From positions 1,242,001 through 1,306,000 of the forward strand of contig CM119371.1 of assembly GCA_051294905.1 (NCBI GenBank): DNA of 64,000 nt, read 5' to 3'. Made by a program: the position numbers and the translations under genes. How positions within the stretch are numbered: the first letter of the stretch is position 1; every line of letters begins with the position of its first letter. Origin of the DNA: Botryllus schlosseri. Taxonomy: Eukaryota. The notes beneath the pieces were generated by a model. That model saw nothing but the letters and a program-made list of their open reading frames with translations, was not told the DNA's origin and did not search any database. This document shows positions 24,910-51,117 of this stretch, one piece after another.

Positions 24910-25239
24910 CTATACACTATTCCAGTGTTTCTTAACCTTGTCGCCAGCACCCCCAACGGGCGTTTTGGATTTTGAAGGGGGAGGAAACGCTGAGGGGGAC
25001 AAGATGGGGGTTGTTGGGCTCAGGAAAGCGGTAGGGGGGCCCTGTAGAAAAAAATTGCCGCTGCAGAGAGTGCAGTAGGGACATAGTAGAGCAACATTTC
25101 CATATATCCCCAAGTTCTCATTGTAAATTAGCATTCGACAAAATCTGTAACATCTCGAAATTTTTCCTCCCACTGCGCGCGACATACATGCTGGCCTTGT
25201 TTGCAACATGTTTCCATGTATGCAGTGATTTATAATCAT

Positions 25240-26102: not shown

Positions 26103-26294
26103 AGTCACTTTGATTCCACGGCAACGATATATTTCCGATATTGACCGTGCCTACGGTCTCCTCTGCTAAGCAATCAACGAATTAAGTACCCACCATTGCA
26201 AAGCGATATCAATTTTCTATAAGCTGTTTCTTAGCCGTACCGTACTAATTAGACATGACTTTCATTGCAAGATGATGATAATCCTACCTATTAC

Positions 26295-26817
26295 TAGTGC
26301 TGGGCACAATGATTCGAGTACTCGAATCTGAATCGAGTATTAATTTTTATGATTCGAGTCGAGTAGTAAAAGACGATTTTTTCGAGTACTGAAATTATAC
26401 GCTCCTCGCCACTGAAAGTTGATTGATCAACGAGGAGTTTATCAACGATCAACGAGTTTATGCTAATTTCACTGTTGAAGCCTTGAAACCTTGATTGGCC
26501 GTATGAAACATGAAGTACAAAGCTACGAATGTTACTGGAAATTGCACATTTCCGAAGTCATGATCATCCCACAATATTGTCACAATGCAAGTGCAATGAA
26601 ATCGGTATGGTCGAAAAAAATATCAAAGTATCCTTAATATGATGGATAACAGGCATTATATTCTTTGTGGTCGCTTAAAAGGTACATATTCGAACTTTGA
26701 CAAATAATATTCTGTTATGACGTCATAATGAGTGATACTCGATTACTCGACTCGACTCGAAGCATTTTACGTGATTCAGAATCGAATCACTCAGGTACTC
26801 GATTTTGCCCAGCCCTA
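26295..26817. mobile_element. hAT-type MITE (ACTCGA family)
   Basis: Ends TAGTGCTGGGCA...TGCCCAGCCCTA. TSD CCTATTAC/CCTATTAA. Duplicate at 47248-47770. Confidence 0.85.
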
Positions 26818-27985
26818 CCTATTAACGTGGTAGCATCTTTATCGGCAGGCAGCTGTATCATTCAACAAATTGACAACTGACAGCCTATAACACGTTTTCG
26901 CATTATGATGCAACACACAACGCCACTTGATTGAAAAATCAGGACACCTTATTCAAAGCCTCGAATAACCATAGGGATGACCTTTTCCAACTTTCCGCGT
27001 TGCGATTAGCAGTATTTATTCACATGATTGCCATTTTTCTGGATCAACAAACTTCCTTATCTTCGCCCTAAGATCGCCAATTCCCGTTAAAATACTAGCA
27101 TCACCATACTACCATCACATTACCTCGGGTTAATTTCTACAAAATGTTTTGAAATAAGTATTTTATACCGCAGCGAATAACGTGTTGACATCGAAGAAAG
27201 AGGCACTGCCCCACTTTTGAAAGTGATAGTGAGAGCCATTTGTACATTGAAGATGCTTCAAATCTCTTTGGTGAAAATGATTAAATAAATATATTTGTAT
27301 ATGATAGCTACAAAATTAAATCTTCAGAATAATTCTTCATCGTATCATCAAGGATGATACTCTTTAGTGTCGCGATTCGTATCCTTACATGATGTTTTTA
27401 TGAAATGGGTTGCTTTGATCGGAATACCATCATGTTGAAGTTGATGGGCCAGATGGTTTGAGCCCGTACCCTATGGTTGTTACGACAACCTAGATTTGAT
27501 CCCGAATATAGCACATACAATTATCATAGCGTTAATTGGTCGAGTGGTCGTCGGGCAAGACAGCTATTTCCAATAGTGAAGTCACATAACCCAAAAATAA
27601 TGACCCAACTTCGAACTCTTACCCTTCGTTTTTACTGCCGTCCTAGAAATACGGGGACGCCAGACACTGGCAATTTTCGAAAGGGCGCTGCAGGATAAAA
27701 AGTTAAGAACCACTGTAGGCTACTATAGCCTCTACCATGTGTCACTTCTGTTTAAAAGTCTGTTTAAAAGTAGCTTTCACATATAATCTGTCCGAAACGC
27801 GTTGTAAGCTACTTTTGAATAGCCCCATACCACACTCGCATGAACACCCGAAAAATACAGCTAATTTGTTATTACAACCCAGTGCAAAATACGTCGTAAA
27901 CCCCAAGCTTCTTTCATTCTCAAATTCAGATAAGAAATTTAATATATTTGCTGGACCAGCACTGGTGAGAACCACTGCTGTACCG

Positions 27986-28668
27986 TAGGGCTCTTCAAAA
28001 ATGACTTTTTTCTCAAATAGCACCGTTGGCTACTTGATAAAACTGTTAGGTTACCGGTATGCCTACCTAATTTAAGCCTACACGCAAAATTTGGTTCAAT
28101 TCCAAGCAGTAGTCGCATTGCTACAGGAGAACAAAGTTTCTATTTATTATATAAAAATAAATACCGTAACAAAAAATTTGAAAATTTTCTGTTCACCCCA
28201 TGAAAGTGTTAGGTTGTCTGTAGAAACGATGTTCACCAAATTTGGTTCAATTCCAACCCAGTGGAAGCGGAGTTATTGCCGTCGAAAAATTTGGATTGTA
28301 TTAAAATAGTATTTACGGTGGGCGCCACTATAATAAATAATTAAAGAATTGGTCACTGTAAGTACTATTTTATTCATAATCCAAATTTTTCGACGGCAAT
28401 AACTCCGCTTCCACTGGTTGGAATTGAACCAAATTTGGTGAACATCGTTTCTATAGACAACCTGACACTTTCATGGGGTGAACAGAAAATTTTCAAATTT
28501 TTGTTATTTACTTTTACATAATAAATAGAAACTTTGTTTTCCTGTACCAATGCGGCTACTGCTTGGAATTGAACCAAATTTGGTGTGTAGGCTTGAATTA
28601 GGTAACCTGACAATTTTATCCAGTAGCCAGTGAGATTTGATAAAAAAAGTCATTTTTGAAGAGCCCTA
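27986..28668. mobile_element. Near-perfect 683-bp palindromic MITE
   Basis: TAGGGCTCTTCAAAAATGACTTTTT ... AAAAAGTCATTTTTGAAGAGCCCTA, with arms complementary over ~330 bp. Flanks CTGTACCG/CTGTACAG. Duplicate at 48939-49621. Confidence 0.9.
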
Positions 28669-30164
28669 CTGTACAGTACATGTAGCCTACATGTACAACT
28701 GTACAGTACATGGTGTTCTGCTCGTGCAGGTTGCATGCTATATATTGGTACTGGATTTTCTTAAGAAACTACATGCCATTTTCAGGGTGCGTATTATACA
28801 TGGGAGCGTAATATACATAGAAAATTACGATACCGACCAATAAACCGCGGTAACTTTGGATAATTTTTGACAATTTCGCTCTATTTCTTGGAAAGGCTAC
28901 AGTCCAGGGGAGCCAAGTTTTGTGTTTTTTGGGGTTATGGAGCAAAGATTAGAATTAACTAATACAAAATCTTTGTGGTCATAAATAAGTACCGTATTTT
29001 TGTAAATTATCTGTGACAATGTAGTTTTTTGAATGTCTTTACACTCTATGGCTTATGAAACCTCCTAAACAAGGCTTATTTGGTAAGAGCTGATGAGAGC
29101 AGTGGCTGAAATGAAAAAAAATGATATACGTCAGGCCTATTGCTATTACATGATTTTCACCTAATCCCCACCCCTAAAAAATAAAATTAAAATTAATACT
29201 TAGGTTCTTTATGAAGGCTGATGCCACCTTATCCATCCCCTATCTCAATTCCCCACATGTCTTCCCCAATTGGGAATTGAAAATAACACATGGTGAGAAA
29301 ATTATCCCACTGGTGGCGTCAGCAAACATTAGGCTTGTTACCGTGATTTATTGCTGATATCAAATATTTTACTCGTCTTTAAAATATGAAACTGCTTTCC
29401 ATTTTCTATGTCCTCTGATGGATATATTTTGTGGTAATTTATGCGACATTCAGCGGGCGTATCTTTAAGAGCATTTGATAAGTTTTAAAAGTAGCTTTCA
29501 CCCGCCTACAATCTAGCGGCTGATTGCTCACCCGTTTTTCAAATATTTTGGTAAACTCTAAATTTATTTAACTTGTCATTTCACGTAAAAAGCCATCAGG
29601 CAGGTCATAACGAATAAAGTTGACGATACACTTTGAAACAGATGAAACAGCAACTTTTCAGAGCTCTAAATATCACATTTTCCACTGTCCAAAGTTACCC
29701 CGTTCTGATAAAATATGATAGGGTAACTTTGGACATCATATTTTCTTATACTGATCTAAGGTTGAGCCCGCTGAGATTTTAGCCACGGATGAAGACTACT
29801 TAGAGGTATCTGCAGCCGAGTTTTGAATCTATGACTATGTTTGTTTGAAATAAATTCAATAACCATTAATTTTGATGAAATTCACCACCGCCGTTAATTT
29901 ATCAATGTTGGGTCTGGTTTATCTGGTGAAATGATTCCACTTTTTATTGAGACTACTTGTGGTACTGTTGCCTTATGAAAAAGAATATTGGACTTTCAAC
30001 GACAACCCTATTCCATCAATATTCAGTCAGTATCAGTATTTGGTTGTTATAAGATATAGAGTACCGGTAGCCTAATATTAGTATATCCTGATATGATAGC
30101 TGCAACTGCATTGTGAGGAAATGGATGCTCCGTCAATCATCTGATTGTTGATCCGCCAAAGACA

Positions 30165-33100
30165 ATGCCATACACCAGGAGAATGAGTACCGGTAATTTC
30201 ACAAGAACAGGCATCACGACAGCCCTAAAGAATACACTGAAGAGTTTGAAAATCTATAAAAATCCAAATCCAGCTAAGCGGGCACCAACAATATCTCTCC
30301 ACCATATACTCCACAGGATGGGATGCAGTGATTCAGCACCATCCGCAAATGTTCTGAATCGAAAATCCATCAGAGACCAAGACAAAAGATTTTGGAAATT
30401 TGGAACCATAAATGTCAGAACCATGAGAGAGGACGAGAAAGCATACGAGGTCGTCAAAGCAATATGCGACGCAGGCCTAGACATAGTCGGTTTACAAGAA
30501 GTGAAACGACTTGATAGAGGAGAAAAAATCATTGAGGCGAATGGATGTAAATACAAATTTTTCTGGCAAGGACACAAATCCATTCGTAAACATGGCGTAG
30601 GCATATTAATTCGACAGTGCAGCTTCATAAAGATTCGTGACGTGATTAACCTATCACCCAGATTGATTGTGGCAAAACTGACCGTGCACAACCTTGACTT
30701 AAAATTTATCATCAGCTATGCCCCGACGGAAGACAAAGCGTCATCAACCAAGGCCGAATTTTACAATAGTCTTTCCAAAATCTGCCAAGCAGATGACGGT
30801 GAAAAGAACCAAAAGATTATTGTAATGGGAGATATGAATGCTACGACGAACCTATGCGAAACGCACAGCTCTTTCAATGGTAAGAAAGGCATAATGAACT
30901 GCACATACAATGATAACGGTGATCGCCTGATCAACTTCTGCAGAGAGAAGGGCCTATGCGTCTCTAGCACGTTCTATATACATCACGAACGGCAGAAAAC
31001 AACATGGACTAGCCCCGATGGCAAAACGCGAAAGAAATTGGACTACATTCTTTGTGAATCTTGGCTGAGGCAATATATGGCCGACTGCTGTACAAAAAGA
31101 TCTATTCAAATAAATTCAGATCATACAATTCTAGTGGCAAAAATGAAAACACCATTTACTAGACAAGAACGTTTCAGACCACGGAAATTTAATAAAGCAA
31201 GAGAGATCGGGGCCCCGGACCTCGGCTACCTGAACAATACCGACTACAAAAACAGGCTAATCGAAGATGTAGAACAATCTCTTTCAACTGACTGCCAGGT
31301 AAAGGATGTGGACAGACTATACGAAAACCTAGCACTACCGATGCAAATGTCCACGGAGAACATACTCCCGAAATATAAGAAGGAAAAATTTGGAAACTTA
31401 TGGGAAAGTGATCAATCACTGAACGATTTGCTACAGAAACTGAAAGACGAGGGACGGAACAATCCGGACTCTCAAAGTGCCATAACACTCCTCAGAAAGA
31501 AGATTAGAAAAAGAAAAAACTTTTTGATGAACAGGCACTGGAAAACTGAAGCAGAAAAAATAAATCTAAATGCGATAAACAGGGAAACCGCAACTCTGTT
31601 CAAAAACGCAAAGACACACGGTTGTACTCTGGGTAAAGGCAATACCACAATTTCCTGCCAGGCGAGTAAACTGGCTGAATTCTTCAAAAACCATTTTGAC
31701 GCACAAGGAAATGAGAAATCGGTTGGGATGCCAAATGATCTGGAAAACATTCCAGATGCTGTAAAGTTGATGCAAGAAAATAGCTCCACCATCGATGAAG
31801 ACCCACCAACACTCGAGGAAATTACACGAGCTATTGAAAAGCTGAAGCGTAAGAAATCCAGTTCAGACGTACCACCGGAGATTTTGAGAGCAATGGCGTC
31901 ATCCAAATTGATCATGGACAAAATTACAGAATTGTTCCAAAAAATATGGGAGATTGAAAAATTACCCCAATCATTCGGCCACAGCAAGCTAACTGCCATA
32001 TGGAAGAACAAAGGAAGCAGAACCGATCCATCGACATATCGCGCTATTCAAGTTGGAAGCGTATTCTGCAAACTGTTAATACAAATAATCATATCAAGAA
32101 TAGAAGAATGGTACAACAAGCAAATTCTCGAATTCCAATGTGGTTTTAGAAAAGGGAAGGGAACCACCGACTGCATATATGTCACGAAGCAGTCTCAAAT
32201 CATTGCTGAAAAAACTGATAAACAAACATATGCCTTGTTTGTCGATCTCTCCTCTGCGTTCGACCACGTTAACAGAACCTGGCTAATTCAGTCGCTACGA
32301 AATCGAATCGATGAGGAAAAGGGAACAAAAATCATCAACTTACTTGCCTCTCTATATCGATGTACAACAACCGAACTGAAAAGCCACCCTAACCTAACTT
32401 TTCCCACAAAATCTGGAGTTCGACAGGGCGGACCCGAATCCCCTATCCTCTTCAATCTTTATATGGACTATGCCGTGAGAGTCTTCCTACACAGATCGAA
32501 ACTAGCCGATATCGCTTTCAGCCAGTATCATTTTCGCACACCGGACTATGCACGAGAAGATAAAAGGGACAAGAACTACCAAGGAACCGCTATCAACATG
32601 GGCTCAGGCTATGCGGACGATCTTGAATTCTTTTTTAAAGACCAAACTTCACTTCAGGAAGGTCTAAAACTGCTATCAGAAGTTCTTACTGAGTTTGGAT
32701 TACAAATTAATGAGTCGAAAACAAAAACTATGATATTTAACCACAATGAGGAACTGACTTACCCGACTTCAATCTGCTCTCTACACAATCATGATATTGA
32801 AAACGTGAAAACTTTCAAATACCTTGGTTGCATGATTCACTATAACGAAACGAATGTGGGGATATCCGAAATCAATAATAGGGTCAGCTCGGCACATGCT
32901 GCTTTCCAAACCTATAAATACCTGCTTCGAAACTTCAGAATTTGGATTGGTACAAGAATAAAATTTTTGAATGCCTTTGTGCGAAGTCGACTCACATATG
33001 GCTGCAGTGTATGGTCTCTTTCGGAAAATCAAAGAAGCGTCCTGGATGTCTGCTACAGACAATTTTTGCGAAAAATGGTACACGGAGGCTACACTCGAAG

Positions 33101-33374
33101 GGGAACCGATCACGCATTCAAAATTAGCAATCAGAATCTTCATAGAATCTGTCGCACTGAAGACCTTTCAGTATTCATTGATCACCAACAAGCTAAATTT
33201 CTTGCACACATAATTCGAAAACCTAATGACAGTGTCGTGAAGTCAATAACGTTTGAAGATGAAAGGAGAACGAAAAAAGGAAGACCCTCCGCAACGCTGA
33301 TGAGCAATGTCCTCAACCGGAACGACACCGACATCAGGACATTCTCAAAAGCAGCACTTTCAAGGGAAATTTAA
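30165..33374 (+). CDS. Intact APE endonuclease-reverse transcriptase ORF (1069 aa) of a non-LTR retrotransposon, RTE-like, copy A
   Basis: APE motifs GTINVRT, GLQE, YAPT, MGDMNA, LDYIL, SDH. RT motifs QCGFRKG, FVDLSSAFDHV, GVRQGGPESPILFNLYMD, YADD, FKYLG. Single ORF with no ORF1 evident. Confidence 0.95.
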   Translation: MPYTRRMSTGNFTRTGITTALKNTLKSLKIYKNPNPAKRAPTISLHHILHRMGCSDSAPSANVLNRKSIRDQDKRFWKFGTINVRTMREDEKAYEVVKAICDAGLDIVGLQEVKRLDRGEKIIEANGCKYKFFWQGHKSIRKHGVGILIRQCSFIKIRDVINLSPRLIVAKLTVHNLDLKFIISYAPTEDKASSTKAEFYNSLSKICQADDGEKNQKIIVMGDMNATTNLCETHSSFNGKKGIMNCTYNDNGDRLINFCREKGLCVSSTFYIHHERQKTTWTSPDGKTRKKLDYILCESWLRQYMADCCTKRSIQINSDHTILVAKMKTPFTRQERFRPRKFNKAREIGAPDLGYLNNTDYKNRLIEDVEQSLSTDCQVKDVDRLYENLALPMQMSTENILPKYKKEKFGNLWESDQSLNDLLQKLKDEGRNNPDSQSAITLLRKKIRKRKNFLMNRHWKTEAEKINLNAINRETATLFKNAKTHGCTLGKGNTTISCQASKLAEFFKNHFDAQGNEKSVGMPNDLENIPDAVKLMQENSSTIDEDPPTLEEITRAIEKLKRKKSSSDVPPEILRAMASSKLIMDKITELFQKIWEIEKLPQSFGHSKLTAIWKNKGSRTDPSTYRAIQVGSVFCKLLIQIIISRIEEWYNKQILEFQCGFRKGKGTTDCIYVTKQSQIIAEKTDKQTYALFVDLSSAFDHVNRTWLIQSLRNRIDEEKGTKIINLLASLYRCTTTELKSHPNLTFPTKSGVRQGGPESPILFNLYMDYAVRVFLHRSKLADIAFSQYHFRTPDYAREDKRDKNYQGTAINMGSGYADDLEFFFKDQTSLQEGLKLLSEVLTEFGLQINESKTKTMIFNHNEELTYPTSICSLHNHDIENVKTFKYLGCMIHYNETNVGISEINNRVSSAHAAFQTYKYLLRNFRIWIGTRIKFLNAFVRSRLTYGCSVWSLSENQRSVLDVCYRQFLRKMVHGGYTRRGTDHAFKISNQNLHRICRTEDLSVFIDHQQAKFLAHIIRKPNDSVVKSITFEDERRTKKGRPSATLMSNVLNRNDTDIRTFSKAALSREI

Positions 33375-33483
33375 TTTATAACCTAAATCTTTGATGCTCT
33401 CTCATTTTTGATGGATACTTCCATCACCTCGGTGATGGTGCTCTAAGTCTGAACGCAGACAGAGCTAGACCTATATATATATA
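33375..33483 (+). mobile_element. LINE 3' UTR with a stem-loop and (TA)n tail
   Basis: CCATCACC-TC-GGTGATGG hairpin at 33421-33438. TATATATATATA tail at about 33472-33483. Confidence 0.7.
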
Positions 33484-33749
33484 ATCATTTGAATCTTTTA
33501 CTGCTTGCTGTCCAAGTTACCCCTAGTTCAAAGTTACCCCGGTTTTTATTAAACCCCGGTTTACGGTTAATAAATTTTATAAACGAAACAGCCTATAACC
33601 TAGAACAGTTTTTAAAAGTAGGTGATTTTGAGAGACGTGAGTGAAAAAAAGTGTTAGAGATCCAGCGCTATACAAGCAAACCCATTGAGTATACAGATAC
33701 AAAAATTTTGAATGCCACAGAAAAGTAGAGGGATAACGCTAACGATTAC

Positions 33750-34586
33750 TAGGGCAAGTTTTCGTTGCTGTAAAATCGCGAGAAAGTTGCACTTACTTTT
33801 GACAGAAGTTGCAGTAAAAAATTGCATTCATAATTTTTGTTGAACTAGTAGGATATGTGATACTTGAAAGGTTCTGTTGTATAACCTAGTTCCTGCAGAG
33901 CTATCAAATTTGTTACTCTGCCATTTCACGAACATTCTGGTAAGACAGTCAAAAATTATATTTTTTCCCGGTACACATCTAGAAAATTACGCAATGCATG
34001 AATAATTTTCCCCAAAAAGTCAAACAGCATAGCGATAAACCCCTGCCCCTAAAACAAGTCAAATAACAACCCCCTAGGTCTGCAAACTTGAGCCAAGGTG
34101 TTGCGGAAAAATCAGTCTTGGCAACTGTAACAAATTCAAAGGACTGAATAAACTGACCCAATGAAAATGTAATTATCGGCGATCTCACATTAGCGTCCGT
34201 GAAATGGAAAACCATCTCGAATTTAAACGACAGAATTACTTAAGCGATCTATTTACATATTGTTCCAACACTGTCGTGCTTGGCAGAGGCTGTTGAACTT
34301 CTTTTACTTGCAAGCCATTGTGTCACAGATAACACAGTGACATGCAGCTAACGCATCATATAGCTCTTTGGGATGCAAAAAGAGAATAGAAGCATACTAG
34401 AAATAATTTGAAGCATGTTTTCAAATCACTCCTTTACATTTTGACGCAATATTTGATAAAAATTGCAGTAAAAAGAAAAATAGTGAAAAGTTGCACTATA
34501 AAATCCCCCCAAACAGCTTAAAACATCGCTGTACATAGATTCTGAGATCTAGGAAGCTGTAAAAAGACTTGCAAAAACTTGCCCTA
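33750..34586 (+). mobile_element. Non-autonomous DNA element with TAGGGCAAGTTTT TIRs
   Basis: TAGGGCAAGTTTT ... AAAACTTGCCCTA. Paralogous to 25240-26102. Duplicate at 54703-55539. Confidence 0.8.
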
Positions 34587-36629
34587 CTCGTATACCTTTG
34601 GTCTAGTCTTTAGAGTGGCCAAAAAGATATGTTTAACTCTTTGGTTGGGAAATCAATGGAAAAAGTTTGGGAACCCCTGACCTACAGAAGATATGATGGT
34701 CATAGCAAAAATACATTATTATTGCTGATCAATATGTTGCCAGCACTAATCCTAGTAAAGAAATGGTGATTATGGATACGAAGTAATATTCATAGCCCGT
34801 TGAAGATTTTTGTCATATTGATTGTTACTGGGTGATTCTCTATCAAATCAACCATTTAGTGGTCTCCCAATCATGAAGTTCACTTACTCTAATATTGAAT
34901 GCTTGAGATGGTGCTGGTCATAAAACAGCTTAGTCAGATCACCTCGTCTAAAGATACAATAGATGAACCTCTTGAACCAGACGATAAAATGAGCTCAAGG
35001 GTAGAACCTGCTTAGACAATTCTCAAAAACAAGTCAACAACGTAAAATTAGAATATTGTTGGTGTAATTCTGTCTACAGAAATATTGCATACCGGTGCGC
35101 TAGTTTCAAGAAAAACAATTCGTCTACTTTTGCCTACGATACATTACTGTCGCAACTTTAAAATTCCAATACATATTTATTAATATCTCATTTGCATAGC
35201 ATTCAGTGCTACCATATAGCTTTCATATGACACGGTTAATCAAAATTTGAAAGTTGACAAAAATGAGAAGGATACTCCTGTGATTTCCATGAGCAATGAC
35301 ATCAAACTTGAGTTACATGCTGGTTCCGGAACACGAATAACACTAATAACTTGAAAGATATGTCTATGATATATGTTCATTCACGGGTCTCCATCGAGTT
35401 CCGCGCCTCAATTAGGTTTTTTTTTGATGTGGCGTTCAAGTCTTGCATACCACTACTCGAAGTGCTATACTGTGACACTAGTTCCAAAAGGTTGAGAACT
35501 ATACTGATATGAAAGTCTGGTTGTTTAAAATATTCGAACCAGTCATTGTCCTCAATTAGGCTACTCGTCTGCGAATACACAGAAATTTCAGCTATGGGCA
35601 TATTCTCGACTTAGGGTCACATCAGTATGACGAGCCAGATATCGGCGTGACTCCATGTAACCTACAGAAACTGCGATGTTACATCCCAATCTAATGCTGG
35701 CTTGGCGTTTGAGCTTAATTTCTCTGTCGCTCTCTCCTGACCCACCTCCCTATTCCGCAAAAACATATCTGTTGTTACCTGGCTGTTATTGAAAAAAGCT
35801 ACTGAGCCCGGCGGCGGACTAGTCTCTTTAAGTTCAACAGCATTTCTATCGAATATTTTTCCAAGGAAACTGGGGAAACGAGGGTTTTTACTGTTGTTGT
35901 TGCCGTCACGGTAGCTCGAGTTATTGCATTATGACGTAACCCTCTTCACAGAGAGTTTAACCTTAGGTCACGGGAAAGTGATGCGGCGACATTGCGTATA
36001 AATAATAAATATAGTGATTGCGGGATGGAGTGACGACTGAATTCAAATCCCCGATTGATATTCATCCGCGACCGATTTTGGTGTTGAGATGACAATGATT
36101 AGCATCAGGATTTGGGAAAACAGCATTTGAGAAATTTTGGTGGATTAGGATTCTGATTGGATTTACCGATTTTCGGAAGATTGATGTCCTGTGGCCAGTG
36201 GCGGCTCGTCCTATAGGGCAACTGGGGCATTGCCCCACCTAAAATTCTGTTCAATAACAATTTAACCATTTATAGACGCACAGCAATCAGTATATACCGA
36301 GATCACGGCGAAACCCGCATTATTCTTGTGCTTTCGCTAACAAATGCCCATACATAGCGAAGTCTCTGCGAAAATCGAATTCTCTTCTGTGTTTTCGCTT
36401 TGTGAATGCCTAGCCGGGGCTTGCCCCGGTAGCGCTCATAACAAGCTTTCACTATCTATTCTCTCAAAGCCGCGCACAATAAAGAAACGGTGATTTACTC
36501 TCTCCTATTCGTAAAATGGCCGAGCAAGTGGGGCAACTATGCCTGTCGCCCTTAAGGTGTGATGTAACAATCGTATCTATATCTGAACTCGGTTACCGTG
36601 ATATGCGTTGACTCGACCTTTGCTGGTAT

Positions 36630-37660
36630 AGGTCGATTTTGACGGTGTTTCGCACCATGATAATTCTTGAAACTTGGTACGATATGTCGTGAAGGTAGTA
36701 TTTAGCACTGCTCCAAGTTTCAGGCTTGCTACTCAAAGATAAGGGAGGTAATTTCGTTTCCGAAGTTCAGTGTGTGCTGATCTATCATGTACATTGTACA
36801 GCAAACAGATTTTACTCAAAAGCCGGTATTGGTCTTCATTGATTTTGACGATGTTCCATACCGAGATCGGTCATGATATTTGGCACAGTAAGTCTTAATG
36901 TTAGTATCGACCGCTGTAATAAGTTTTAGGTTTTTCACTGAACTATGTGGGTGGTAATTTCGTTTCCAAAGTCGAGTGAGAGCTGACTCTTCATTTATCG
37001 CTAACAGATTTACGCAAAAGCCGTTAATGGTCTCTATTGATTTTAACGATGATCCATACCTAGATCTGTCATGAGCTTTTGCACGGTATGTCTTGATTTT
37101 AGTATCGAACGCGGTGCCAAGTCTTAAAGTTGACGCTCAATGATTGAGGCAGTTATTTCGTTTTCGAGGTCGAGTATGGTAGAGATGCGCGCTGATCTGA
37201 TACTTAGCCTACCTACATCATTGCGGATCTCACGGAAAAGCCGGTGTCTGTCTGTGCTAATCTAGTCTGCGTTCCATAACGAGATCGGTGATGATAGTTC
37301 CAATGGTATATCTCGATGATCGCATGAAACAGCTAACTAAGATTCTCGGTTTGCATTCAAATATTCACATAATTTTATGTTCGCCAATGTGCATTTCACT
37401 GTGAAATTTTGGCCTTCAAACCATTTGCTTACAATCCCCTGTCAAATGCGATAGCTATTTCATTTTCGATGTCGGCTAACAGCTGATCATTCGATCAGCC
37501 TATTCCTCGATCTATTTTACTCAAAGTTCGGTGTTCGTCTGTTTGTATTGATTTTGACAGTGTACCATGCCGGAATGGGTTATGAGATTGCGAATGCTAC
37601 TTCTCGATGATTTCATGTAACAGTATGCTAAGTTTACGGCTTTCATTCATGTATTTATTG
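36630..37660 (+). repeat. Degenerate ~200-bp tandem repeat (about 5 units) inside the hAT element
   Basis: Units begin gattttgacg/gattttaacg at about 36635, 36841, 37039 and 37550, with a diverged unit near 37260. Shared ccatacc.agatc.gtcatga, aatttcgtttcc and aaaagccg. Confidence 0.75.
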
Positions 37661-38198
37661 ATTAATATATTTTCCAACGGCGATTTGGCAGCAGACAGTA
37701 AGCCGTATGTGTTGCGTCACAATCTCCAGTTTCAAGGCCAAAATGTACTATGTTGTTCCGAGACCGAAGTTCCGAGGCTGCTGTCCTTAGTTCTTCAAAG
37801 ACCATTCAAATTGATGTTCTGGATTCAATATGACAGGCCCAATCTATGAGATAACAATTGCGTATGTGTCCGAAGTCGTTGACCTTTGCAGTTAGGCTTA
37901 CGCAATCTCTCGAGTTCTAGTCATTGGAATTAGTCTGGTCAAGTCAAGTGCGAACATGAATCGTATTGAATCTTTGCTCCGTACGTACGCTAGTTTACGC
38001 AGTTGCCTTTAGAGCGAAAATTAAAGGTCTAGAAGACTACTCCTTGTCACTTCGACATATTCCTGTCTTTTCATTGTATCGCATTTTTGTGGTGTATTGA
38101 ACTGATAAAATTGCTAATAAACCAATGATGATGATGATAGAAATTGTCCAGTCCATTGATCCAATCGTACGCCGGGTACCTCCGCTTTGGTTGCCTAT

Positions 38199-38704
38199 CA
38201 GTGATGAGCGGATAGTGCTTTTTGAGACTCCGAATCCCTCCGACAACTTTAGTGTCTGAGGAAAACTCCCTCCGACTCCGAAGAGCTCAATCCCAGACTC
38301 CTAGATACTCCGATGAATCTCGTCAAGTATCCGAAACAGTGGCAAGCATGGTACACTTTGTAATGTGTTTTACTAAATTAATGTGATAATAGGGTTGGCC
38401 TCATAGTATTGTCTACTCTCCAGTCCCCAATTGCAGTGCATATGGCTGATTTTTTTGCACTTGGCAATCATCTTTGCATGTTACCCGTCATATTACAACT
38501 TTACAAGGTGTCAACTCTCTGCGTTTTGGTTTGTAATCATAATCAAGAGTGTATTCTGGCCAGAGCTATCCAAAGATATCGGAGACAAAAGTTACAATAC
38601 TCCAAAATTCTCCGAAAAAATATCTGTAGTAAACTCCGACTCCGCTCCGACTGTCACAAAATCGGCAAAACTCCGCTCCGAATCCACTCCGATGCTCATC
38701 ACTG
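38199..38704. mobile_element. Nested hAT MITE with ACTCCG repeats
   Basis: TIR CAGTGATGAGC / GCTCATCACTG. Perfect TSD TTGCCTAT at 38191-38198 and 38705-38712. Duplicate at 59152-59657. Confidence 0.9.
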
Positions 38705-39906
38705 TTGCCTATCACCTGGTCGTAACTCGTAACCACCAGCTCAGTGGTCGTAACACACCAGGATCGTGTACGAAACACTTTCGGACGGCCTATCGATTTG
38801 CGTAATCTCTAACTCTACCATGAAATCATAACGCATGCTACTAAGGATGACCTGATAATTGATTCGTGGCATAGGGACGATTCTTAGTTCACGTACATTA
38901 TGTAAAATAATCCTTTGATTAAAAAAAATGAATAAAACATTTGTTACCACACTTCAAGTCACGGCTCACCGGCAAACCTCTGGCGGCACCTACGTTAAAA
39001 TCACTGTTGTCGGGAAATTCATGAGACCATCATATTAAAGTTACTTTTTTACGTTGGAAAACGCCATTGTGACGTCATGTTGATAAAAGTCGCTCGCAGC
39101 CCTTGCCCCACCACCCGATATTGTCACGAGCCGCCACTGCCTGTGGCGAATGGTGACAAAGTTTTTCGACCTATCTAAGTTAGCCTACTTCGTGTATTTT
39201 GAGCATTTTGTTTATTTTTCACAGAACTATAGGCATGGGATATAGGCTTTTTAAGTGGAATGCTAAGTTTGAATCGGATTAGGATTAGGACTAGGATTGT
39301 AGAATACATAATTTTTGGATCAGAAAGGATCAGATAAGGACATAGAAGTTTTGAATCCGCTCATTTCTTGTTTATTGGCGTCATGTTGCAGTAATTATAT
39401 CGTGAACATTGTTGTTATGGTATTATTGTCAGTTATACTTTCAATGTTTGAGATCATACGTGTATCAATGCATATGAATGTCGAAATATCCATTTAAATC
39501 AAGGACGAAACATGGATGCGGCGAGGTGGCATAATCGACAGCTACAAAACGTGTTGTCGGTCCGAATCCGACCGAGGTCGACTCCAGAATTCCCCTACCT
39601 AGGTGTTGGAGGTTTTTCTAGTATGGAGACCCGAGGTTTTCAGATTGTTCTGTATTTGCCATTTAGAAATTGCGTTGCGCATGGTATGGCTGGAGACCGG
39701 GTGTTGACTCAGTTCAGTGAGTAACTGAGTATGTCTCTATGTTTGGTAGCGTGAAGAATAAGTAGTTGGGAGCAGTAGCGTGAAGTAGAGGTGGTATTAG
39801 GCAATTAGGGCGAGAAGTAGTAGGTAGTTGGTCTTGTATTTGCAGACTTGAGTTAGACGTACCTGTCGGAATCTCTGCGCGGACAGTTGGCTGTGACACG
39901 GCCTAG

Positions 39907-39915
39907 ACACGGCCA
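39907..39915. other. 9-bp junction insertion ACACGGCCA between the two duplication copies
   Basis: Absent from both parental flanks (...GTTGC|CGATTTC and ...GCCTAG|TCACTG). Its first 8 nt repeat ACACGGCC at 39896-39903. Confidence 0.9.
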
Positions 39916-40605
39916 CGATTTCATGAGATTGAAAACACGGAGCACTGGATTTTCAATATTTTTGAATTTGTTTTATAAATAAAATATTGGCCTCGATACC
40001 AGCATTTCATGGACTGATATCGATAATCGGGAAGGTTTCAAATATCGGCTTCGATAATCGGTCAGGTTTATAATCCGTCGACCTCTAACTAATAGATTCG
40101 AAACTCCAGTCGTTACGCTGGAATCCACAATGCTGAGCATGTCAATAATAGCATAATTAATACTAGTGGGGACCACAGTGTTAAATTCAATAAAACTGAA
40201 TTTAATCGAAAACAGATTTTGAAAATATCAATTAAAGTTTGATCAGAGTAATGAAACCACCCCTAAATAGCACTGAAAGGTCATGAAATCGGCGTTGTTC
40301 GAGCAATCGAACCGCCACAGGACAATGACGACAACAATGGTCAAACGCGTTGCGCGACCGTTCTGAACAATGAGGGATCGCGATTAGTAATCGAAAATTG
40401 GACTCAAAGCCTGACACTCAGTTCAGAATTGAATCACTCCGATACTTGATATATGATCAGACCACACTCGCACCTAGAAACGTATATTTAAATGTGTGTT
40501 TTCTCACAGATTCATATTTTCAGTCTCGAGAGTAGCGGGAATACGATAACTTTTCGAGAAAAGTAGCCAACATCACGGAAAACTATACTCTCCGATGAGA
40601 CTCAC

Positions 40606-42048
40606 CTTCATGAAGGCTATCCGGCTTTTCATCGCAAATGATGCCGCACACGAATCTTCGGACGACCGACCATCGCTCTTTGTGCAGGTGTTTAGAGTTG
40701 AAGCTCATGAACTTTGTAAGCGTCATTTCGACTACAAAGCCCGCAGCGAGGAATTCTTGCAGACTTTGATGACAGAAGAAGAAAATGAAATCACCCTCCA
40801 AAAGATTGCAACTGAGGAGTTTGTTTCCAGGAACCTTCATCATGAGATCTTGAACTTCTTCTGTTGAAAGTCCAAACATCCTCAAATCATTTTCACGGAA
40901 TGCCACTCTCCCTTCTTTCATGCCACGATATGCCATCGCTTTCAATTTATTAACAACTCCGGCGATAACCTTAGCATTTCTAATGTTTTTCACGCTGCTT
41001 AAAGTGGATATAATTTTTTTGTAGAGTCCTGTGACGGTCTTTGGAGGAGGGTCGTTCGGATTCCTGGCCATGATCACTGCGGTTAAGACCAGAAACACGG
41101 GAATGGAAACTAAATTGATCAGCCTTGGTGACATCTTTTCCATCTTCTCCCATGCTTCATCCCCATGCTGACGTATCAGATACAGAAAAAGGTTCTTTGC
41201 GTCATCTAGGGTCAGACCAGAAAGTGTGATGATGTCGGCAGGCCGAGCTTCCGCGGGCAAATCCGAGACTTGAAATTCCCGAGAAGAGATGACAATCTTC
41301 GTATCAGCGAGTATATTATGTGAGAGGATATTGAACATGATCGTTGCTGCTTCGGCTAGAGTATAAGGATTTATGCTTTCGTCGCCATCTCTGTTGATTT
41401 TCCACATAGCCTGATCCAAGCCATCGAAAAATAAGACTGAGTCAGACTGATGTTCGAGCAACCACTGATATGCATTATCCTCATCGATCTCATTCTGAAA
41501 GAGGCCACCGAAGAGAAATTTAGATGGTTTGATCAATCCTTTATCTCGCATGCCTTTTATTTCTATATAATGTATCAATTTATACTTTAGCTGAGAGGGA
41601 CTTGCAGTGGCTTCTGTATTCGTGAGTGAATGCCCTAAACATTGTCTAGCGATTCTACGCATGAGAGTGGTTTTCCCAGATCCTGCAGACGCAACTATAG
41701 CGGTGATAGAACTGTCCCCGTTGATAAGTTGTTGCAAAACGTCATCTAGCTCGATGAATTTGTTGTCGTCAACTACTTGTCGGAGAAATCCGAATTCCTT
41801 TCTGAATTGATTTTTGACAACCTCTTTCTTTTGCCAGAAGAAGAATTTTCTTTTTACTTCGACTTCCATTCCGTGCACCTCTTCATAATTGCCTTTGAAA
41901 TATTCTGACTTAGTGACTCTTCTCATCTGGGGATGTACTTGAAAATCAGGTTTGCTGAGGTCGTCGGCGCCGATGTCTTCGAGGATTCTGTCCGCCGTCT
42001 TTTGAGACGTATTATCGTTTATGCATTTTATCAGGGTTGAAGCTTTTT
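40606..42048 (-). CDS. Duplicated NACHT exon (copy B), with no LRR exons of its own downstream
   Basis: The 511-aa ORF 40583-42118 is identical to 19630-21165 and has the same splice sites. Confidence 0.9.
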
Positions 42049-45000
42049 CTGGAAGATAAAAATATCCTTTCTTCATTATATTTATGAATAGAAATGATCG
42101 GACAAAAGCTGTTACCACTTTTTGTTAATATTTTATATGACCTAGGACCTAGGTATTCAAGAAAGATGTGGAGATTAATACTGTGAATAATGCAGAATTA
42201 AGAGGGGCACCGGCGTTCTCAACCTTTGTTCAGCCAATATTCCGGTTTTAAAACTTCATGTGGCTTATCCTAGAGTCATGGTCCTGTTCAGTGCGCGGTA
42301 ATCGCCGCCGCGGATATGCGTATTTGTCTAAAATATGTGCATTTATCTCCGACTAATCATATTTTAATTTATACCTCTATACAAAGATTGATCTACTTGC
42401 CGGCGTTAAAAAAAGTTTGTGCGGTTGTTTACAAGCAACTCCGTTGCAGCCGTCGACATGCAAATTGAATAGACTGGCTAATTTTTGAAAGATTTCAATC
42501 ATTCATTTTCAATTCATTTATCGCGTCAACGACAGGCCTGAATAATCGCATAAACAGCACGCTATGTGCGCAAAATGTAATCGCTGGCTACAGTCGCATC
42601 TCCAACAGGCCTGGTGCGCACGACGCTATCGTTTGCCTGAGAAATCACATCTATAATAGGCCGTATGCGCAAGATATCGTCGCTGGCCTGAACTATCGCG
42701 TCTCGGGCCTCGCAGGCTTTGGCTGTTATCTACTATCGTTTTGAGACAATGCCGTTCAATGTATAATGATTAGCTATGGTTATGTCATGATTGTTCAACA
42801 GTGACATAGCAAATCAGAATGAAATCGAATACGAAAACATATATAACTATTCATATACTGCGAATGTGGGATGCGTACTATACATGGGTACAGGCTTTTT
42901 ACCAGAAGTCACACGCCATTTTAAGGGTGCGTATTATACATGGTGGCCCACTATATTTGAAAAATGTGGTAGTAGCGCCATTTCCCATCTGAGCCCCACA
43001 GTACAGATCTGAACAAAAGAGGAAAATGATGCAGCACCCCACATAGAGAAACCAAATTGGAATCATCTGTTTATAACGAATGAAATTTGTTTCTGGTACG
43101 TTTCGGCGATTCAAATATATTTCCACTCCAGCGACAATCGTAATGGAATGTAGAAAAATAACTGCATGCAACAAAGTGACTGATAAAAATTGGCCCATGC
43201 CAAGATCCATCATCATTTATATCTTGCCCTAAATTTTTGAAAACACCTCCTCCATCAACTCTACCGGTTAATATGAGCACACGGGCTGAGAAAAAATGAA
43301 TGTGAATAGGAATATGACAAATTTCTAATAATAATGAGAAAATTCATAACTAAATCTTAAAATTTCTGTGTGACAATGACTATCCCAGCCTTACATGACC
43401 ACTGACCCGTCACCACTCACGATTTCGGTGTTTATAGTAAGCAGATATGTGTGAATGTTTTTGTCCTGAGGTCGCCGGAAATAGATACCAAACCGTTTTA
43501 ACATTCCAGTAGGCTGTAGGTAGGCCTATATCGCGTCCAGTTCTTAACGACTATGCCTTTGTATGAGGCCATAGTGCATGGGTAGGTACGTTAAGCATAG
43601 GCGTGTGCCTATCAGCTGGAAGTGTTGTGCCATTTAGCGAGATTCGTTTTCGCTGCACAACGGCAAGCGATCTCTCGCTGAGTGGGTTTGCAATTTTCAC
43701 GCGAACAAAATCAGGTCATTGATTGCTGTACATGCGCGATCCTCGCTGGCCTGATTTATCGCGTGAACAACAGGCCGGAACAATTGCATCTACAGCAGTC
43801 CAGGTGTACAAGATATCATCGCTGGCCTAAACAGTCACATCTGCAACAGCCTGGTCACGCACAAGACATCGTTGTTAGTCTGAAAACTATCACATCTCGG
43901 GCCTCGCAGGCTTTAGCTGCTTTGTACAATCGTTTGGAGATAATGCCGTTTAAGTCCAGAGCCAATGATTAGCGATGGTTTCGCCATGATGGTGCAGCAG
44001 TGACCTCACAAAATAAAATGACATCATATCGCCGCGAGCATACTTTAATGTGCGTAATCTATTTCCGGTAATACTAAAACACAACCATCGCTGGTTCGTC
44101 AAAACAGGAAGCTTTTATAACAAGCATATACTCATTTGCTATGCATACACTGTACAGTAGTGGTTATCAACCTTCTTGACCTCACGGACTGGTAAAACTT
44201 CAAAAAATGTTGAGGACGGTCATCCTTCAAAAATCGAAATTAACTCTAAATTCAATCAGGGTACTGGTACGACAAATGTATACAGCTCTACCAACTTACA
44301 TGTGCTATTGAAAACTACATTTAATGCTGTTGTTTTGATATTGGATATTTATACATGAATATTTTGGAGTTTCTGCAAGGTTAAGCTAGCGAAGTCCTGT
44401 TAAAAACCACGTGGTTGTGCTTGTTGGCTTTTCTCCAAAAGATATTGCTATATACCAGTGCTTTTCAACCTTTTTGAGCTCCATTCGCACTTTTTTTGTA
44501 AAATAAATTTCATTCGCACAAACTAATCGAAAATTGTTATACAAAAAGAAGACGAAGATACTTAACAACATTTTGTTCAGATGTGCAACAAATTAGCTGC
44601 CATGTAAATTAAGCTATCAAGTGTCCCATTAAAAAGGTAATTTTTTTCGCTCGTTTTGATTTCAATTATTTCACTAAAACCCTTCTCGGCCAAACAAGTT
44701 TTTGGGTTTTGTACAAAAACGTCTACTAGTGCTTGGATGGCCAGGCCTTAAAATCTGTTCTGCACTCCTATCCAAAATACAGCGTATTTTTCGCGAGTGA
44801 AAAATGCCTGCCAGCAGAAATCGTTTTGGAGAGCTGACACAAAGGTCCCTTAGGCTCCAGTTTGTCGAAAAGGAAAAGAGCTCAAATGTTTGTTTTGAGG
44901 TTTCTGCCTTATGTATTGGAACATAAGGTGCAAAAACGATCAAGGAGAGTATGTACATTGGAGCAACGGATCATAAGGTATAGCGAGCTCCAACTTCTGT

Positions 45001-48000
45001 CTGACGAGTATATGAGACGAGTAAATATACTCACGATACATACCGCCCTCATTTTATCAGCGGTTTGCTGGCCATAACTATACGTCTTCATGTGCCCCTA
45101 CGCAGAAGGAGTTGGCTCGAAATGAACGACTCTCATAGGCCTGAACTCGCTCGTTGCACATCCCTACACCAGTTCATCCCAACGGTCTTCGATTATGTTT
45201 TCCAGAAAAAAACAGTCGGACAAATCTTATCATGATTTCTCACGATAAAGCCATATTTTATGCGTGTCTCGCATATTGGCTACAGTACCCAACACAGTGC
45301 CTTGGATATGTAAAAACTATCGCAGGATTTTTTGCACTAAATTCAACAAATATTACATACATATTAACAGATAGCTCTGGCACCGTGTCGACCCAAAATT
45401 ATATACCCGTTGCGGTTCATACTTTATTACCTCGAAGGGGTAAAAATTTGCGTTACAGTTACTTGCAAATGTGAGTCTGTAATGATGGTATGTACTATAC
45501 TATTCTCTTGTCTCGCGCTAGTCGAACAGTTATTACGAAAATATGATGATTGTTTAGCGAAAGAAAGCAGAAAGTCAATTTAACGTCATTCACTACGGCT
45601 TGTGAGAGCTACGATTAGCGGTGCGTCGTAAGTTAAACAAGTTTTTAGAGTTGCGTCGCCACTACAAAAGTTACACTGACCTCAAATTTCCTGTTAGGTT
45701 TATTTGAATTATTCCAAGTCAGAAAAATTAACAATTATTCACGATTTTCATTCGCACTTTATCCGGATTTTCATTCGCACTGTTCGCACCACCTTCGTCA
45801 TTCGCACTGCAATTTTTTTCATTCGCACAAGTGCGAACCGTCACACAGGTTGAAAAGCACTGCTATACACTATTCCAGTGTTTCTTAACCTTGTCGCCAG
45901 CACCCCCAACGGGCGTTTTGGATTTTGAAGGGGGAGGAAACGCTGAGGGGGACAAGATGGGGGTTGTTGGGCTCAGGAAAGCGGTAGGGGGGCCCTGTAG
46001 AAAAAAATTGCCGCTGCAGAGAGTGCAGTAGGGACATAGTAGAGCAACATTTCCATATATCCCCAAGTTCTCATTGTAAATTAGCATTCGACAAAATCTG
46101 TAACATCTCGAAATTTTTCCTCCCACTGCGCGCGACATACATGCTGGCCTTGTTTGCAACATGTTTCCATGTATGCAGTGATTTATAATCATTAGGGCAA
46201 GTTTTGTTGCACTAAAATCGCCGAAAGCAGCTTAATTTTATCAAAGGTTACAGTAAAAAGGTGCATTTATAATTTTTGTTCAAGTATTAGGTTATGAGAT
46301 AGTCAAAAGGGACCGTTGTATAACTTAGTTTCTCCAGAGCTGACAAATTTGTTACTTCGCCATCTAACTGTCTGACGAAACCGCCGAAAATTACATTTTT
46401 AAGGCAAACAGCAAGAAAATCAAGCAATGCGGGAATAATTTCCCCAAAAAAGCCAACAGCATAGCGATTACCCCCTCCCCCTATAACAAGTCAAATAACA
46501 CAACCCAAAACCTTTCGGTCTGCAAGCTTGACCCAAGCCATTACCAAAAAAACTCACTCCTGGCGACTTCATCAAAATCAATAGGCTCTAGCCTGAAAAA
46601 GGTGACCCGGGGTAAATGTAATTTTCAGCGGTCTCGCCTTGGCGTTCGTGAAATGGGAAATTATTGTAAAATTTGACGAGAGAATTAATACAGTAATCTA
46701 TTTCTATATCGTTCGGTCACGGTCGTGCTAGGCAGGGGTAGTTGAACATGCTAGCATGCCATTGTGGCATAGATACCAGTGAGACGCAGCTAACCAGTCA
46801 GATAGCTCTTTGTTATACAAATCAATGGGAATAGAGCCATACTAGAAGTTGTTTATAGCATGTTTTTAAATCACTCCTTTACATTTGTACGCAATAGTTG
46901 ATCAAAGTTACGGTAAAAATTAGCATGAAAAATAGAAAAAAGTTGCAGAAAGTTGCACTATCAAATCCTTTCAAACAGCTTAAAACATTATAGTACATAG
47001 ATTCCGAGATTTCAAGTTTTAGAAATGGACCTTCACAATTTGAGAACTTGACATAAGTCACTTTGATTCCACGGCAACGATATATTTCCGATATTGACCG
47101 TGCCTACGGTCTCCTCTGCTAAGCAATCAACGAATTAAGTACCCACCATTGCAAAGCGATATCAATTTTCTATAAGCTGTTTCTTAGCCGTACCGTACTA
47201 ATTAGACATGACTTTCATTGCAAGATGATGATAATCCTACCTATTACTAGTGCTGGGCACAATGATTCGAGTACTCGAATCTGAATCGAGTATTAATTTT
47301 TATGATTCGAGTCGAGTAGTAAAAGACGATTTTTTCGAGTACTGAAATTATACGCTCCTCGCCACTGAAAGTTGATTGATCAACGAGGAGTTTATCAACG
47401 ATCAACGAGTTTATGCTAATTTCACTGTTGAAGCCTTGAAACCTTGATTGGCCGTATGAAACATGAAGTACAAAGCTACGAATGTTACTGGAAATTGCAC
47501 ATTTCCGAAGTCATGATCATCCCACAATATTGTCACAATGCAAGTGCAATGAAATCGGTATGGTCGAAAAAAATATCAAAGTATCCTTAATATGATGGAT
47601 AACAGGCATTATATTCTTTGTGGTCGCTTAAAAGGTACATATTCGAACTTTGACAAATAATATTCTGTTATGACGTCATAATGAGTGATACTCGATTACT
47701 CGACTCGACTCGAAGCATTTTACGTGATTCAGAATCGAATCACTCAGGTACTCGATTTTGCCCAGCCCTACCTATTAACGTGGTAGCATCTTTATCGGCA
47801 GGCAGCTGTATCATTCAACAAATTGACAACTGACAGCCTATAACACGTTTTCGCATTATGATGCAACACACAACGCCACTTGATTGAAAAATCAGGACAC
47901 CTTATTCAAAGCCTCGAATAACCATAGGGATGACCTTTTCCAACTTTCCGCGTTGCGATTAGCAGTATTTATTCACATGATTGCCATTTTTCTGGATCAA

Positions 48001-51000
48001 CAAACTTCCTTATCTTCGCCCTAAGATCGCCAATTCCCGTTAAAATACTAGCATCACCATACTACCATCACATTACCTCGGGTTAATTTCTACAAAATGT
48101 TTTGAAATAAGTATTTTATACCGCAGCGAATAACGTGTTGACATCGAAGAAAGAGGCACTGCCCCACTTTTGAAAGTGATAGTGAGAGCCATTTGTACAT
48201 TGAAGATGCTTCAAATCTCTTTGGTGAAAATGATTAAATAAATATATTTGTATATGATAGCTACAAAATTAAATCTTCAGAATAATTCTTCATCGTATCA
48301 TCAAGGATGATACTCTTTAGTGTCGCGATTCGTATCCTTACATGATGTTTTTATGAAATGGGTTGCTTTGATCGGAATACCATCATGTTGAAGTTGATGG
48401 GCCAGATGGTTTGAGCCCGTACCCTATGGTTGTTACGACAACCTAGATTTGATCCCGAATATAGCACATACAATTATCATAGCGTTAATTGGTCGAGTGG
48501 TCGTCGGGCAAGACAGCTATTTCCAATAGTGAAGTCACATAACCCAAAAATAATGACCCAACTTCGAACTCTTACCCTTCGTTTTTACTGCCGTCCTAGA
48601 AATACGGGGACGCCAGACACTGGCAATTTTCGAAAGGGCGCTGCAGGATAAAAAGTTAAGAACCACTGTAGGCTACTATAGCCTCTACCATGTGTCACTT
48701 CTGTTTAAAAGTCTGTTTAAAAGTAGCTTTCACATATAATCTGTCCGAAACGCGTTGTAAGCTACTTTTGAATAGCCCCATACCACACTCGCATGAACAC
48801 CCGAAAAATACAGCTAATTTGTTATTACAACCCAGTGCAAAATACGTCGTAAACCCCAAGCTTCTTTCATTCTCAAATTCAGATAAGAAATTTAATATAT
48901 TTGCTGGACCAGCACTGGTGAGAACCACTGCTGTACCGTAGGGCTCTTCAAAAATGACTTTTTTCTCAAATAGCACCGTTGGCTACTTGATAAAACTGTT
49001 AGGTTACCGGTATGCCTACCTAATTTAAGCCTACACGCAAAATTTGGTTCAATTCCAAGCAGTAGTCGCATTGCTACAGGAGAACAAAGTTTCTATTTAT
49101 TATATAAAAATAAATACCGTAACAAAAAATTTGAAAATTTTCTGTTCACCCCATGAAAGTGTTAGGTTGTCTGTAGAAACGATGTTCACCAAATTTGGTT
49201 CAATTCCAACCCAGTGGAAGCGGAGTTATTGCCGTCGAAAAATTTGGATTGTATTAAAATAGTATTTACGGTGGGCGCCACTATAATAAATAATTAAAGA
49301 ATTGGTCACTGTAAGTACTATTTTATTCATAATCCAAATTTTTCGACGGCAATAACTCCGCTTCCACTGGTTGGAATTGAACCAAATTTGGTGAACATCG
49401 TTTCTATAGACAACCTGACACTTTCATGGGGTGAACAGAAAATTTTCAAATTTTTGTTATTTACTTTTACATAATAAATAGAAACTTTGTTTTCCTGTAC
49501 CAATGCGGCTACTGCTTGGAATTGAACCAAATTTGGTGTGTAGGCTTGAATTAGGTAACCTGACAATTTTATCCAGTAGCCAGTGAGATTTGATAAAAAA
49601 AGTCATTTTTGAAGAGCCCTACTGTACAGTACATGTAGCCTACATGTACAACTGTACAGTACATGGTGTTCTGCTCGTGCAGGTTGCATGCTATATATTG
49701 GTACTGGATTTTCTTAAGAAACTACATGCCATTTTCAGGGTGCGTATTATACATGGGAGCGTAATATACATAGAAAATTACGATACCGACCAATAAACCG
49801 CGGTAACTTTGGATAATTTTTGACAATTTCGCTCTATTTCTTGGAAAGGCTACAGTCCAGGGGAGCCAAGTTTTGTGTTTTTTGGGGTTATGGAGCAAAG
49901 ATTAGAATTAACTAATACAAAATCTTTGTGGTCATAAATAAGTACCGTATTTTTGTAAATTATCTGTGACAATGTAGTTTTTTGAATGTCTTTACACTCT
50001 ATGGCTTATGAAACCTCCTAAACAAGGCTTATTTGGTAAGAGCTGATGAGAGCAGTGGCTGAAATGAAAAAAAATGATATACGTCAGGCCTATTGCTATT
50101 ACATGATTTTCACCTAATCCCCACCCCTAAAAAATAAAATTAAAATTAATACTTAGGTTCTTTATGAAGGCTGATGCCACCTTATCCATCCCCTATCTCA
50201 ATTCCCCACATGTCTTCCCCAATTGGGAATTGAAAATAACACATGGTGAGAAAATTATCCCACTGGTGGCGTCAGCAAACATTAGGCTTGTTACCGTGAT
50301 TTATTGCTGATATCAAATATTTTACTCGTCTTTAAAATATGAAACTGCTTTCCATTTTCTATGTCCTCTGATGGATATATTTTGTGGTAATTTATGCGAC
50401 ATTCAGCGGGCGTATCTTTAAGAGCATTTGATAAGTTTTAAAAGTAGCTTTCACCCGCCTACAATCTAGCGGCTGATTGCTCACCCGTTTTTCAAATATT
50501 TTGGTAAACTCTAAATTTATTTAACTTGTCATTTCACGTAAAAAGCCATCAGGCAGGTCATAACGAATAAAGTTGACGATACACTTTGAAACAGATGAAA
50601 CAGCAACTTTTCAGAGCTCTAAATATCACATTTTCCACTGTCCAAAGTTACCCCGTTCTGATAAAATATGATAGGGTAACTTTGGACATCATATTTTCTT
50701 ATACTGATCTAAGGTTGAGCCCGCTGAGATTTTAGCCACGGATGAAGACTACTTAGAGGTATCTGCAGCCGAGTTTTGAATCTATGACTATGTTTGTTTG
50801 AAATAAATTCAATAACCATTAATTTTGATGAAATTCACCACCGCCGTTAATTTATCAATGTTGGGTCTGGTTTATCTGGTGAAATGATTCCACTTTTTAT
50901 TGAGACTACTTGTGGTACTGTTGCCTTATGAAAAAGAATATTGGACTTTCAACGACAACCCTATTCCATCAATATTCAGTCAGTATCAGTATTTGGTTGT

Positions 51001-51117
51001 TATAAGATATAGAGTACCGGTAGCCTAATATTAGTATATCCTGATATGATAGCTGCAACTGCATTGTGAGGAAATGGATGCTCCGTCAATCATCTGATTG
51101 TTGATCCGCCAAAGACA

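Follow-up and report, generated by a model that had tools for sequence, protein, structure and literature searches.

A 21-kb head-to-tail duplication with a locally templated junction at an NLR-like locus in the Botryllus schlosseri assembly

Tandem duplications of the class considered here have so far been studied mostly in mutants and patients. In Caenorhabditis elegans mutants of brc-1 or brd-1, they are mostly ~10 to 20 kb long, and loss of polq-1 suppresses them; the excerpted text of the same report counts none in 240 generations of wild-type worms (PMC7368036). In tnsl-1 mutants, the class spans 5 to 60 kb and carries flank-templated inserts of 1 to 20 bp, which, in the excerpted account, are absent from the residual events that arise without polq-1 (PMC13031629). 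In Drosophila, young tandem duplications encompassing gene fragments are described as a common form of standing variation (excerpt of PMC4069613), and NLR copy number is described as varying widely in zebrafish (excerpt of PMC11192531). Among assembly errors, false duplications are most often separated by gaps, according to the excerpted text of PMC9516828. The duplication class is already known, and the junction described here would, as a repair scar, add one natural ascidian example. Among titles and the starts of abstracts, we found no report of such a junction in ascidians, and no paper on tunicate POLQ among the titles listed.

The window, that is, the whole stretch of 64,000 bases analyzed, has a G+C content of 39% and contains no N anywhere, and hence there is no N gap between the two copies. 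The initial annotation had proposed a duplication from identical sets of open reading frames at a constant offset and had suggested that the copies be aligned to count their differences. Base-by-base comparison at an offset of 20,953 gives a single uninterrupted run of identity, in which copy 1 (18963..39906, + strand) matches copy 2 (39916..60859, + strand) at 20,944 of 20,944 bases, with 0 mismatches and with the copies head to tail in direct orientation; the coordinates and letters that the annotation gave for copies and junction were also correct on rechecking. In size and orientation (20,944 bp, direct), the unit falls in the 5- to 60-kb head-to-tail class of tandem duplications completed by polymerase theta. 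Zero differences in 20,944 bases bound the divergence between copies at 1.4e-4 per site (95%). With a mutation rate assumed to lie between 1e-8 and 3e-9 per site per generation, the duplication would be younger than ~7,000 to 24,000 generations, unless polishing or gene conversion has levelled the copies. The earlier suggestion of a very recent event thus stands if the assembly is faithful.

Nine bases, ACACGGCCA, at 39907..39915 (+) separate copy 1 from copy 2. The motif GACACGGCC is found at 39895..39903 and again at 39906..39914, a spacing of 11 nt, such that the repeated stretch consists of the last base of copy 1 followed by eight inserted bases, with its source 11 nt upstream. The template (39895..39903, +), a 1-nt primer G plus 8 nt, is the same as 60848..60856 in copy 2; it accounts for the first 8 nt of the insert and leaves the last A unexplained. 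How often would such a match arise by chance? In 20,000 trials with random 9-mers, we counted cases in which at least eight inserted bases lay within a match of at least 9 nt, on either strand and near either breakpoint. An equal match arose in 0.2%, 0.4%, and 0.7% of trials within 25, 50, and 100 nt, respectively, values that bear out the initial reading of the first 8 nt as a copy of adjacent sequence and that rise to 0.5 to 2.2% when the 9-nt match condition is dropped. A 28-nt pattern spanning the junction had 0 exact matches in metagenome contigs, a collection that is not expected to contain the host.

Can the insert be derived by SD-MMEJ? In the excerpted definition of PMC5728401, the primer, the whole insert, and at least 1 bp of microhomology of a one-step event all lie in a single motif that is 4 bp or longer and within 30 bp. 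Here, the best motif covers eight of nine inserted bases and has no right flank, and one-step SD-MMEJ fails because the main motif lacks both the last A and a right-hand overlap. A two-step parse passes: if the end slips again, this time on CACG (with C as primer, A as insert, and CG as overlap), its template lies 10 nt before the break. At the final join, the plain parse has 0 nt of microhomology, and only this two-step parse has 2 nt (CG); its second step uses a 4-nt motif, and its first-step primer is only 1 nt. Alternatively, the new end could fold back on an imperfect inverted partner of the insert at 39888..39895 (+), with an 8-bp stem that includes one G-T pair and that would template the A (junction z, −2.36). 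At the native right break, a hairpin falls short of significance (z, −1.28), with 22 of 200 shuffles equally good. Either second step, CACG slip or fold-back, amounts to one base of information. Because the template lies upstream and is in direct orientation, the insert would fit extension of a + strand 3′ end.

The model that we favor, and to which we assign about an even chance, is that of a real, very young duplication that arose by over-long repair synthesis and was closed by polymerase-theta-type end joining. In this model, a broken chromatid end would be extended by ~21 kb on its sister, along the + strand and in a manner akin to break-induced replication, and would then be released. Its 3′ end would slip back 11 nt on a 1-nt primer and copy eight bases, a second slip would add the A with the 2-nt CG overlap (or a fold-back would add the A), and the extended end would then be joined to the other broken end, a course by which polymerase theta is reported to complete tandem duplications. 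The outcome would be an additional NACHT exon placed upstream of an NLR-like gene that is otherwise intact, together with a second copy of a LINE. The structure is what we observe, and we infer from it the synthesis route and the enzyme. In favor of this model are the identity and orientation of the copies, the templated insert, the lack of breakpoint homology, the lack of an N gap, the absence of allelic differences, the size range of worm duplications of this class, and the presence of the haplotype in contigs of one sample (S1, described below); against it are the lack of a contig across the junction among those listed, the failed one-step SD-MMEJ parse, the 1-nt primer, the 4-nt second motif, and the rarity of such events in wild-type worms. 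The initial annotation had named polymerase theta or template switching; size and junction type agree with what the excerpts of PMC7368036 and PMC13031629 describe, but the one-step parse does not hold, and templated inserts are also described in human template-switch duplications (excerpt of PMC6902434), and the enzyme cannot be read from the scar by itself.

Is the duplication itself real? We consider this quite probable. The foremost alternative, which we regard as unlikely but deserving of weight, is an assembly or library artifact: a chimeric long read, or overlapping contigs of the same haplotype that were joined and gap filled, would have written 21 kb twice. Zero differences between the copies are what a twice-walked assembly path gives, and the duplicated unit has roughly the length of a single long read. 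On the other side, there is no N gap, the copy ends have no common sequence on which an assembler could loop, and a filler made of a copy from 11 nt upstream plus one base is not what assembly or ligation would obviously produce. Wrong gap filling can, in the excerpted text of PMC9516828, give false duplications that have no gap. The initial annotation had held that a simple assembly duplication would be less apt to yield a templated junction; the missing gap and the templated filler speak for a real duplication, and the perfect identity, the unit length, and the published gap-free cases speak for an artifact.

Sequencing runs bear on the same question. We found 24 runs (Logan contigs represent 20 of them, and raw RNA reads the other 4) and compared the contigs of 4 of them over 38900..41900, namely, X1, X2, and X4, all from sample S1, and X6. 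The S1 contigs match the window without a difference over 39116..39787 (X1 throughout, X2 and X4 over parts) and reach to 119 nt before the junction; thus, the haplotype exists, with the qualification that S1 may be the source sample and that its contigs lend no independent support. Among the matches listed (32 of 15,690 pieces and 24 of 702 loose ends), none lies within 39788..40013; the missing junction agrees with an artifact but is no evidence of absence. Both junction flanks are repeats, with summed contig depths in the hundreds to thousands. Among the window-identical contigs listed, those over the exon and intron are deeper than those over the repeat part by 1.2 times (X1), 1.55 times (X4), and 1.8 times (X2), near the 3:2 ratio that a heterozygous duplication would give; as an argument against an artifact, this hint is weak, and a homozygous single copy plus a paralogue fits too. 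Window-identical contigs of X4 have ~1.9 times the lowest listed depths, which fits one homozygous copy, as with an artifact, and equally two copies on one haplotype. All of these ratios use a guessed one-copy unit, taken from four to six hand-picked low values per run among those listed, and they decide nothing, as the depth of the repeat part disagrees between runs (1.9 to 3.1 units). Moreover, the depth of a contig is not a measure of copy number, and it could be raised by near-identical NLR paralogues.

If the duplication is real, could it have formed without polymerase theta? An origin by FoSTeS/MMBIR seems to us improbable, as does one by classical end joining aided by a gap-filling polymerase. 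The excerpted text of PMC6902434 ascribes a human PLP1 duplication with an 11-bp templated insertion to two template switches, and the junction here likewise needs two. However, apart from the 2 nt that the two-step parse provides, there is no microhomology for a 21-kb jump, the sequence beside the junction has no new point changes, and the templated insert is just what is described as lacking from residual worm duplications without polq-1 (excerpt of PMC13031629). We think it very improbable that a 21-kb circle was excised, closed by end joining, and returned to the homologous site by recombination. This route would give the same tandem sequence, such that the junction could not separate it from the others, but it needs two rare steps and has left no direct sign.

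The breakpoints themselves leave little room for other routes. They have 0 nt of flanking microhomology in common, and the longest word common to both on the same strand is 7, 9, and 11 nt within 100, 500, and 2,000 nt, respectively. Their local alignment scores are at the level of shuffled medians (12 versus 13, 20 versus 20, and 24 versus 24 for 50, 300, and 1,000 nt), and no homologous repeats lie there in register. Nonallelic homologous recombination is rejected on these grounds, and unequal crossover between homologous repeats is excluded, as the initial annotation had argued, because the breakpoints lack mutual homology. The left break lies within a 560-bp hAT-like MITE in an intron of the NLR-like gene (18575..19134), delimited by 15-nt terminal inverted ends (13 of 15 complementary) and a decayed 8-bp flanking repeat (6 of 8); the hAT label presumes the rule of an 8-bp target duplication. 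Since the break sits 388 and 172 nt from the ends of this element, a transposase cut does not explain it. The right break lies in a repeated, G/T-rich segment with approximate limits of 60660..61280, set by composition and by summed contig depth on the copy-1 part, which is ~30 times that of a single contig in run X1. With a solo LTR defined by TG..CA ends and a 4- to 6-bp target duplication, no clear pair of LTR ends was found at the right break; there are three weak TG..CA candidates with 4- to 5-bp flanks, and none was chosen. The earlier placement of the breaks in unrelated repeats thus holds for the hAT-like MITE on the left and for repeated DNA on the right, and the “LTR-like” label is not carried forward. 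Nearby, a hAT-like MITE at 61327..62175 is flanked by a perfect 8-bp target duplication and contains another, nested inverted-repeat element.

Allelic variation provides a further comparison. Run X6, from another sample, differs from the window at 3 of 216 bases nearby (~1.4%), so an allele pair written in tandem would be expected to show hundreds of differences: ~290 at the X6 rate, and at 0.1% the chance of zero differences would be 8e-10. With 0 differences in 20,944 bases, a false heterotype duplication (an allele pair assembled twice) is rejected. In total, unequal crossover between repeats, transposase cutting, and two alleles in tandem are scarcely credible explanations, as both breaks do lie within repeats but show no homology, sit away from the MITE ends, and bound copies that lack allelic differences.

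What does the unit contain? A 513-codon frame at 19630..21171 (−) encodes a NACHT domain (Pfam PF05729; 47.9 bits, cutoff of 26.7), and its best named relatives are Styela clava proteins at 33 to 36% identity, along with Clavelina proteins. The initial description of an immune locus is sound insofar as the unit contains a NACHT exon, the immune role being suggested by the domain. NACHT exon A (copy 1, 19653..21095, −; 1,443 nt) has strong splice signals and a predicted phase of 1-1; its copy 2 (40606..42048, −) is identical, with an intron that runs across the junction. The left break falls within the intron after exon A, and two further exons lie outside the duplicated unit. Exon B (17621..17922, −; phase 1-0) covers the end of the helical domain and the first LRR-like unit and is matched by 17 of 17 Styela clava proteins and 0 of 8 Clavelina proteins tried. 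Putative exon C (12269..12373, −) is predicted to be LRR-like from splice signals and an open frame. Neither exon B nor exon C had a Pfam LRR match. The Styela proteins inspected have N-terminal extensions before the start of exon A, and thus exon A is probably internal; splice-site scans, for which we built approximate weight matrices ourselves, detected no convincing 5′ exon either in the unit or in its right flank. Of the 146 stop-to-stop frames in 8500..40000 with 55 or more amino acids, 71 were searched against Pfam, and these gave no match above the curated cutoff and no death-fold domain.

Several observations extend this picture. Downstream of exon C (−), open exon-like stretches with splice signals, found by eye and by rough scan, lie at 9748..9649, ~9147..8985, ~7031..6830, and 4200..4011, and they may carry the NLR-like gene on to ~4 kb in the window. 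At 90% likeness, and among the matches listed, contig depth summed over the NACHT exon (40583..41900) exceeds that of the window-identical contig by a factor of about 10 to 20, an excess that points to a family of close NLR paralogues in the species. Also, 5 of 206 relatives (P0090, P0162, P0192, P0193, and P0206) have two to six tandem NACHT-like stretches that are 20 to 25% identical to exon A.

How might the gene read a second exon A? Joined in the order A-B-C, the frame stays open over 616 codons, and in the order A-A-B-C it does so over 1,097 codons; read-through into the intron meets a stop after seven codons. Given that exons B and C lie outside the unit, the gene might leave out one copy and stay unchanged, splice in both, or terminate early. 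We speculate, tentatively and on the reading frames and predicted splice sites, that this is a real, segregating exon duplication in which the NACHT exon would be spliced twice to give a double-NACHT NLR, or would be terminated in the intron to give a NACHT protein without LRRs; on balance, we think this doubtful.

The unit also carries a LINE-type open frame with endonuclease and reverse transcriptase as a passenger (30117..33374, +; second copy at 51070..54327, +). The frame is uninterrupted over 1,085 codons and antisense to the NLR-like gene, and the LINE is probably a young element. No separate ORF1 was found among frames of at least 110 amino acids, and no target-site duplication was convincing, with two 8-nt candidates. 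Other elements include a probable decayed hAT-like transposon in an intron of the NLR-like gene at ~13390..15310. The first 59 residues of relative P0075 match 14427..14597 at 44%, such that this protein model may begin with transposon sequence. A 700-bp fold-back element with arms 85% alike lies at 27978..28676 and has relatives at 4637..6140 and 11310..12095.

Why does this matter? One junction changes no model; what it offers in practice is a marker, typeable by PCR, at an NLR-like locus. If the duplication is real and spliced, single-NACHT and double-NACHT alleles of one gene could be compared directly; if the double-NACHT reading is true, the locus would offer a one-step, dated origin of a tandem-NACHT layout beside its unduplicated allele. 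A false duplication would mean an assembly error of 21 kb and inflated counts of NLRs and LINEs.

Among known systems, the duplications of C. elegans brc-1/brd-1 and tnsl-1 mutants and of Arabidopsis tonsoku mutants, as far as the excerpts of PMC7368036 and PMC13031629 describe them, are like the one here in their head-to-tail arrangement, size class, unrelated breakpoints, and flank-templated inserts. They differ in that they arose in repair mutants and are reported there to need polq-1, whereas the present case is known from an assembly alone. Single duplications at human PLP1 are likewise tandem, with a short templated junction insert from two switches, but they are read as replicative template switching, and their junctions were confirmed by PCR (excerpt of PMC6902434). 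Loop-out insertions of Drosophila SD-MMEJ share with this junction a direct-repeat slip within 30 bp of the break on a primer of at least 1 nt; in contrast, the main motif here ends without microhomology, and the excerpted definition (PMC5728401) fits only with a second round. False duplications resemble this locus in having adjacent copies, and their homotype class lacks allele-specific words (excerpt of PMC9516828), but here there is no gap, no difference between copies, and a templated filler. Finally, the partial-gene duplications of Drosophila and the NLRs of zebrafish, in the excerpts of PMC4069613 and PMC11192531, provide parallels in young partial-gene copies and in NLR copy number variation, with the distinction that the part copied here is one internal NACHT exon in a single assembly.
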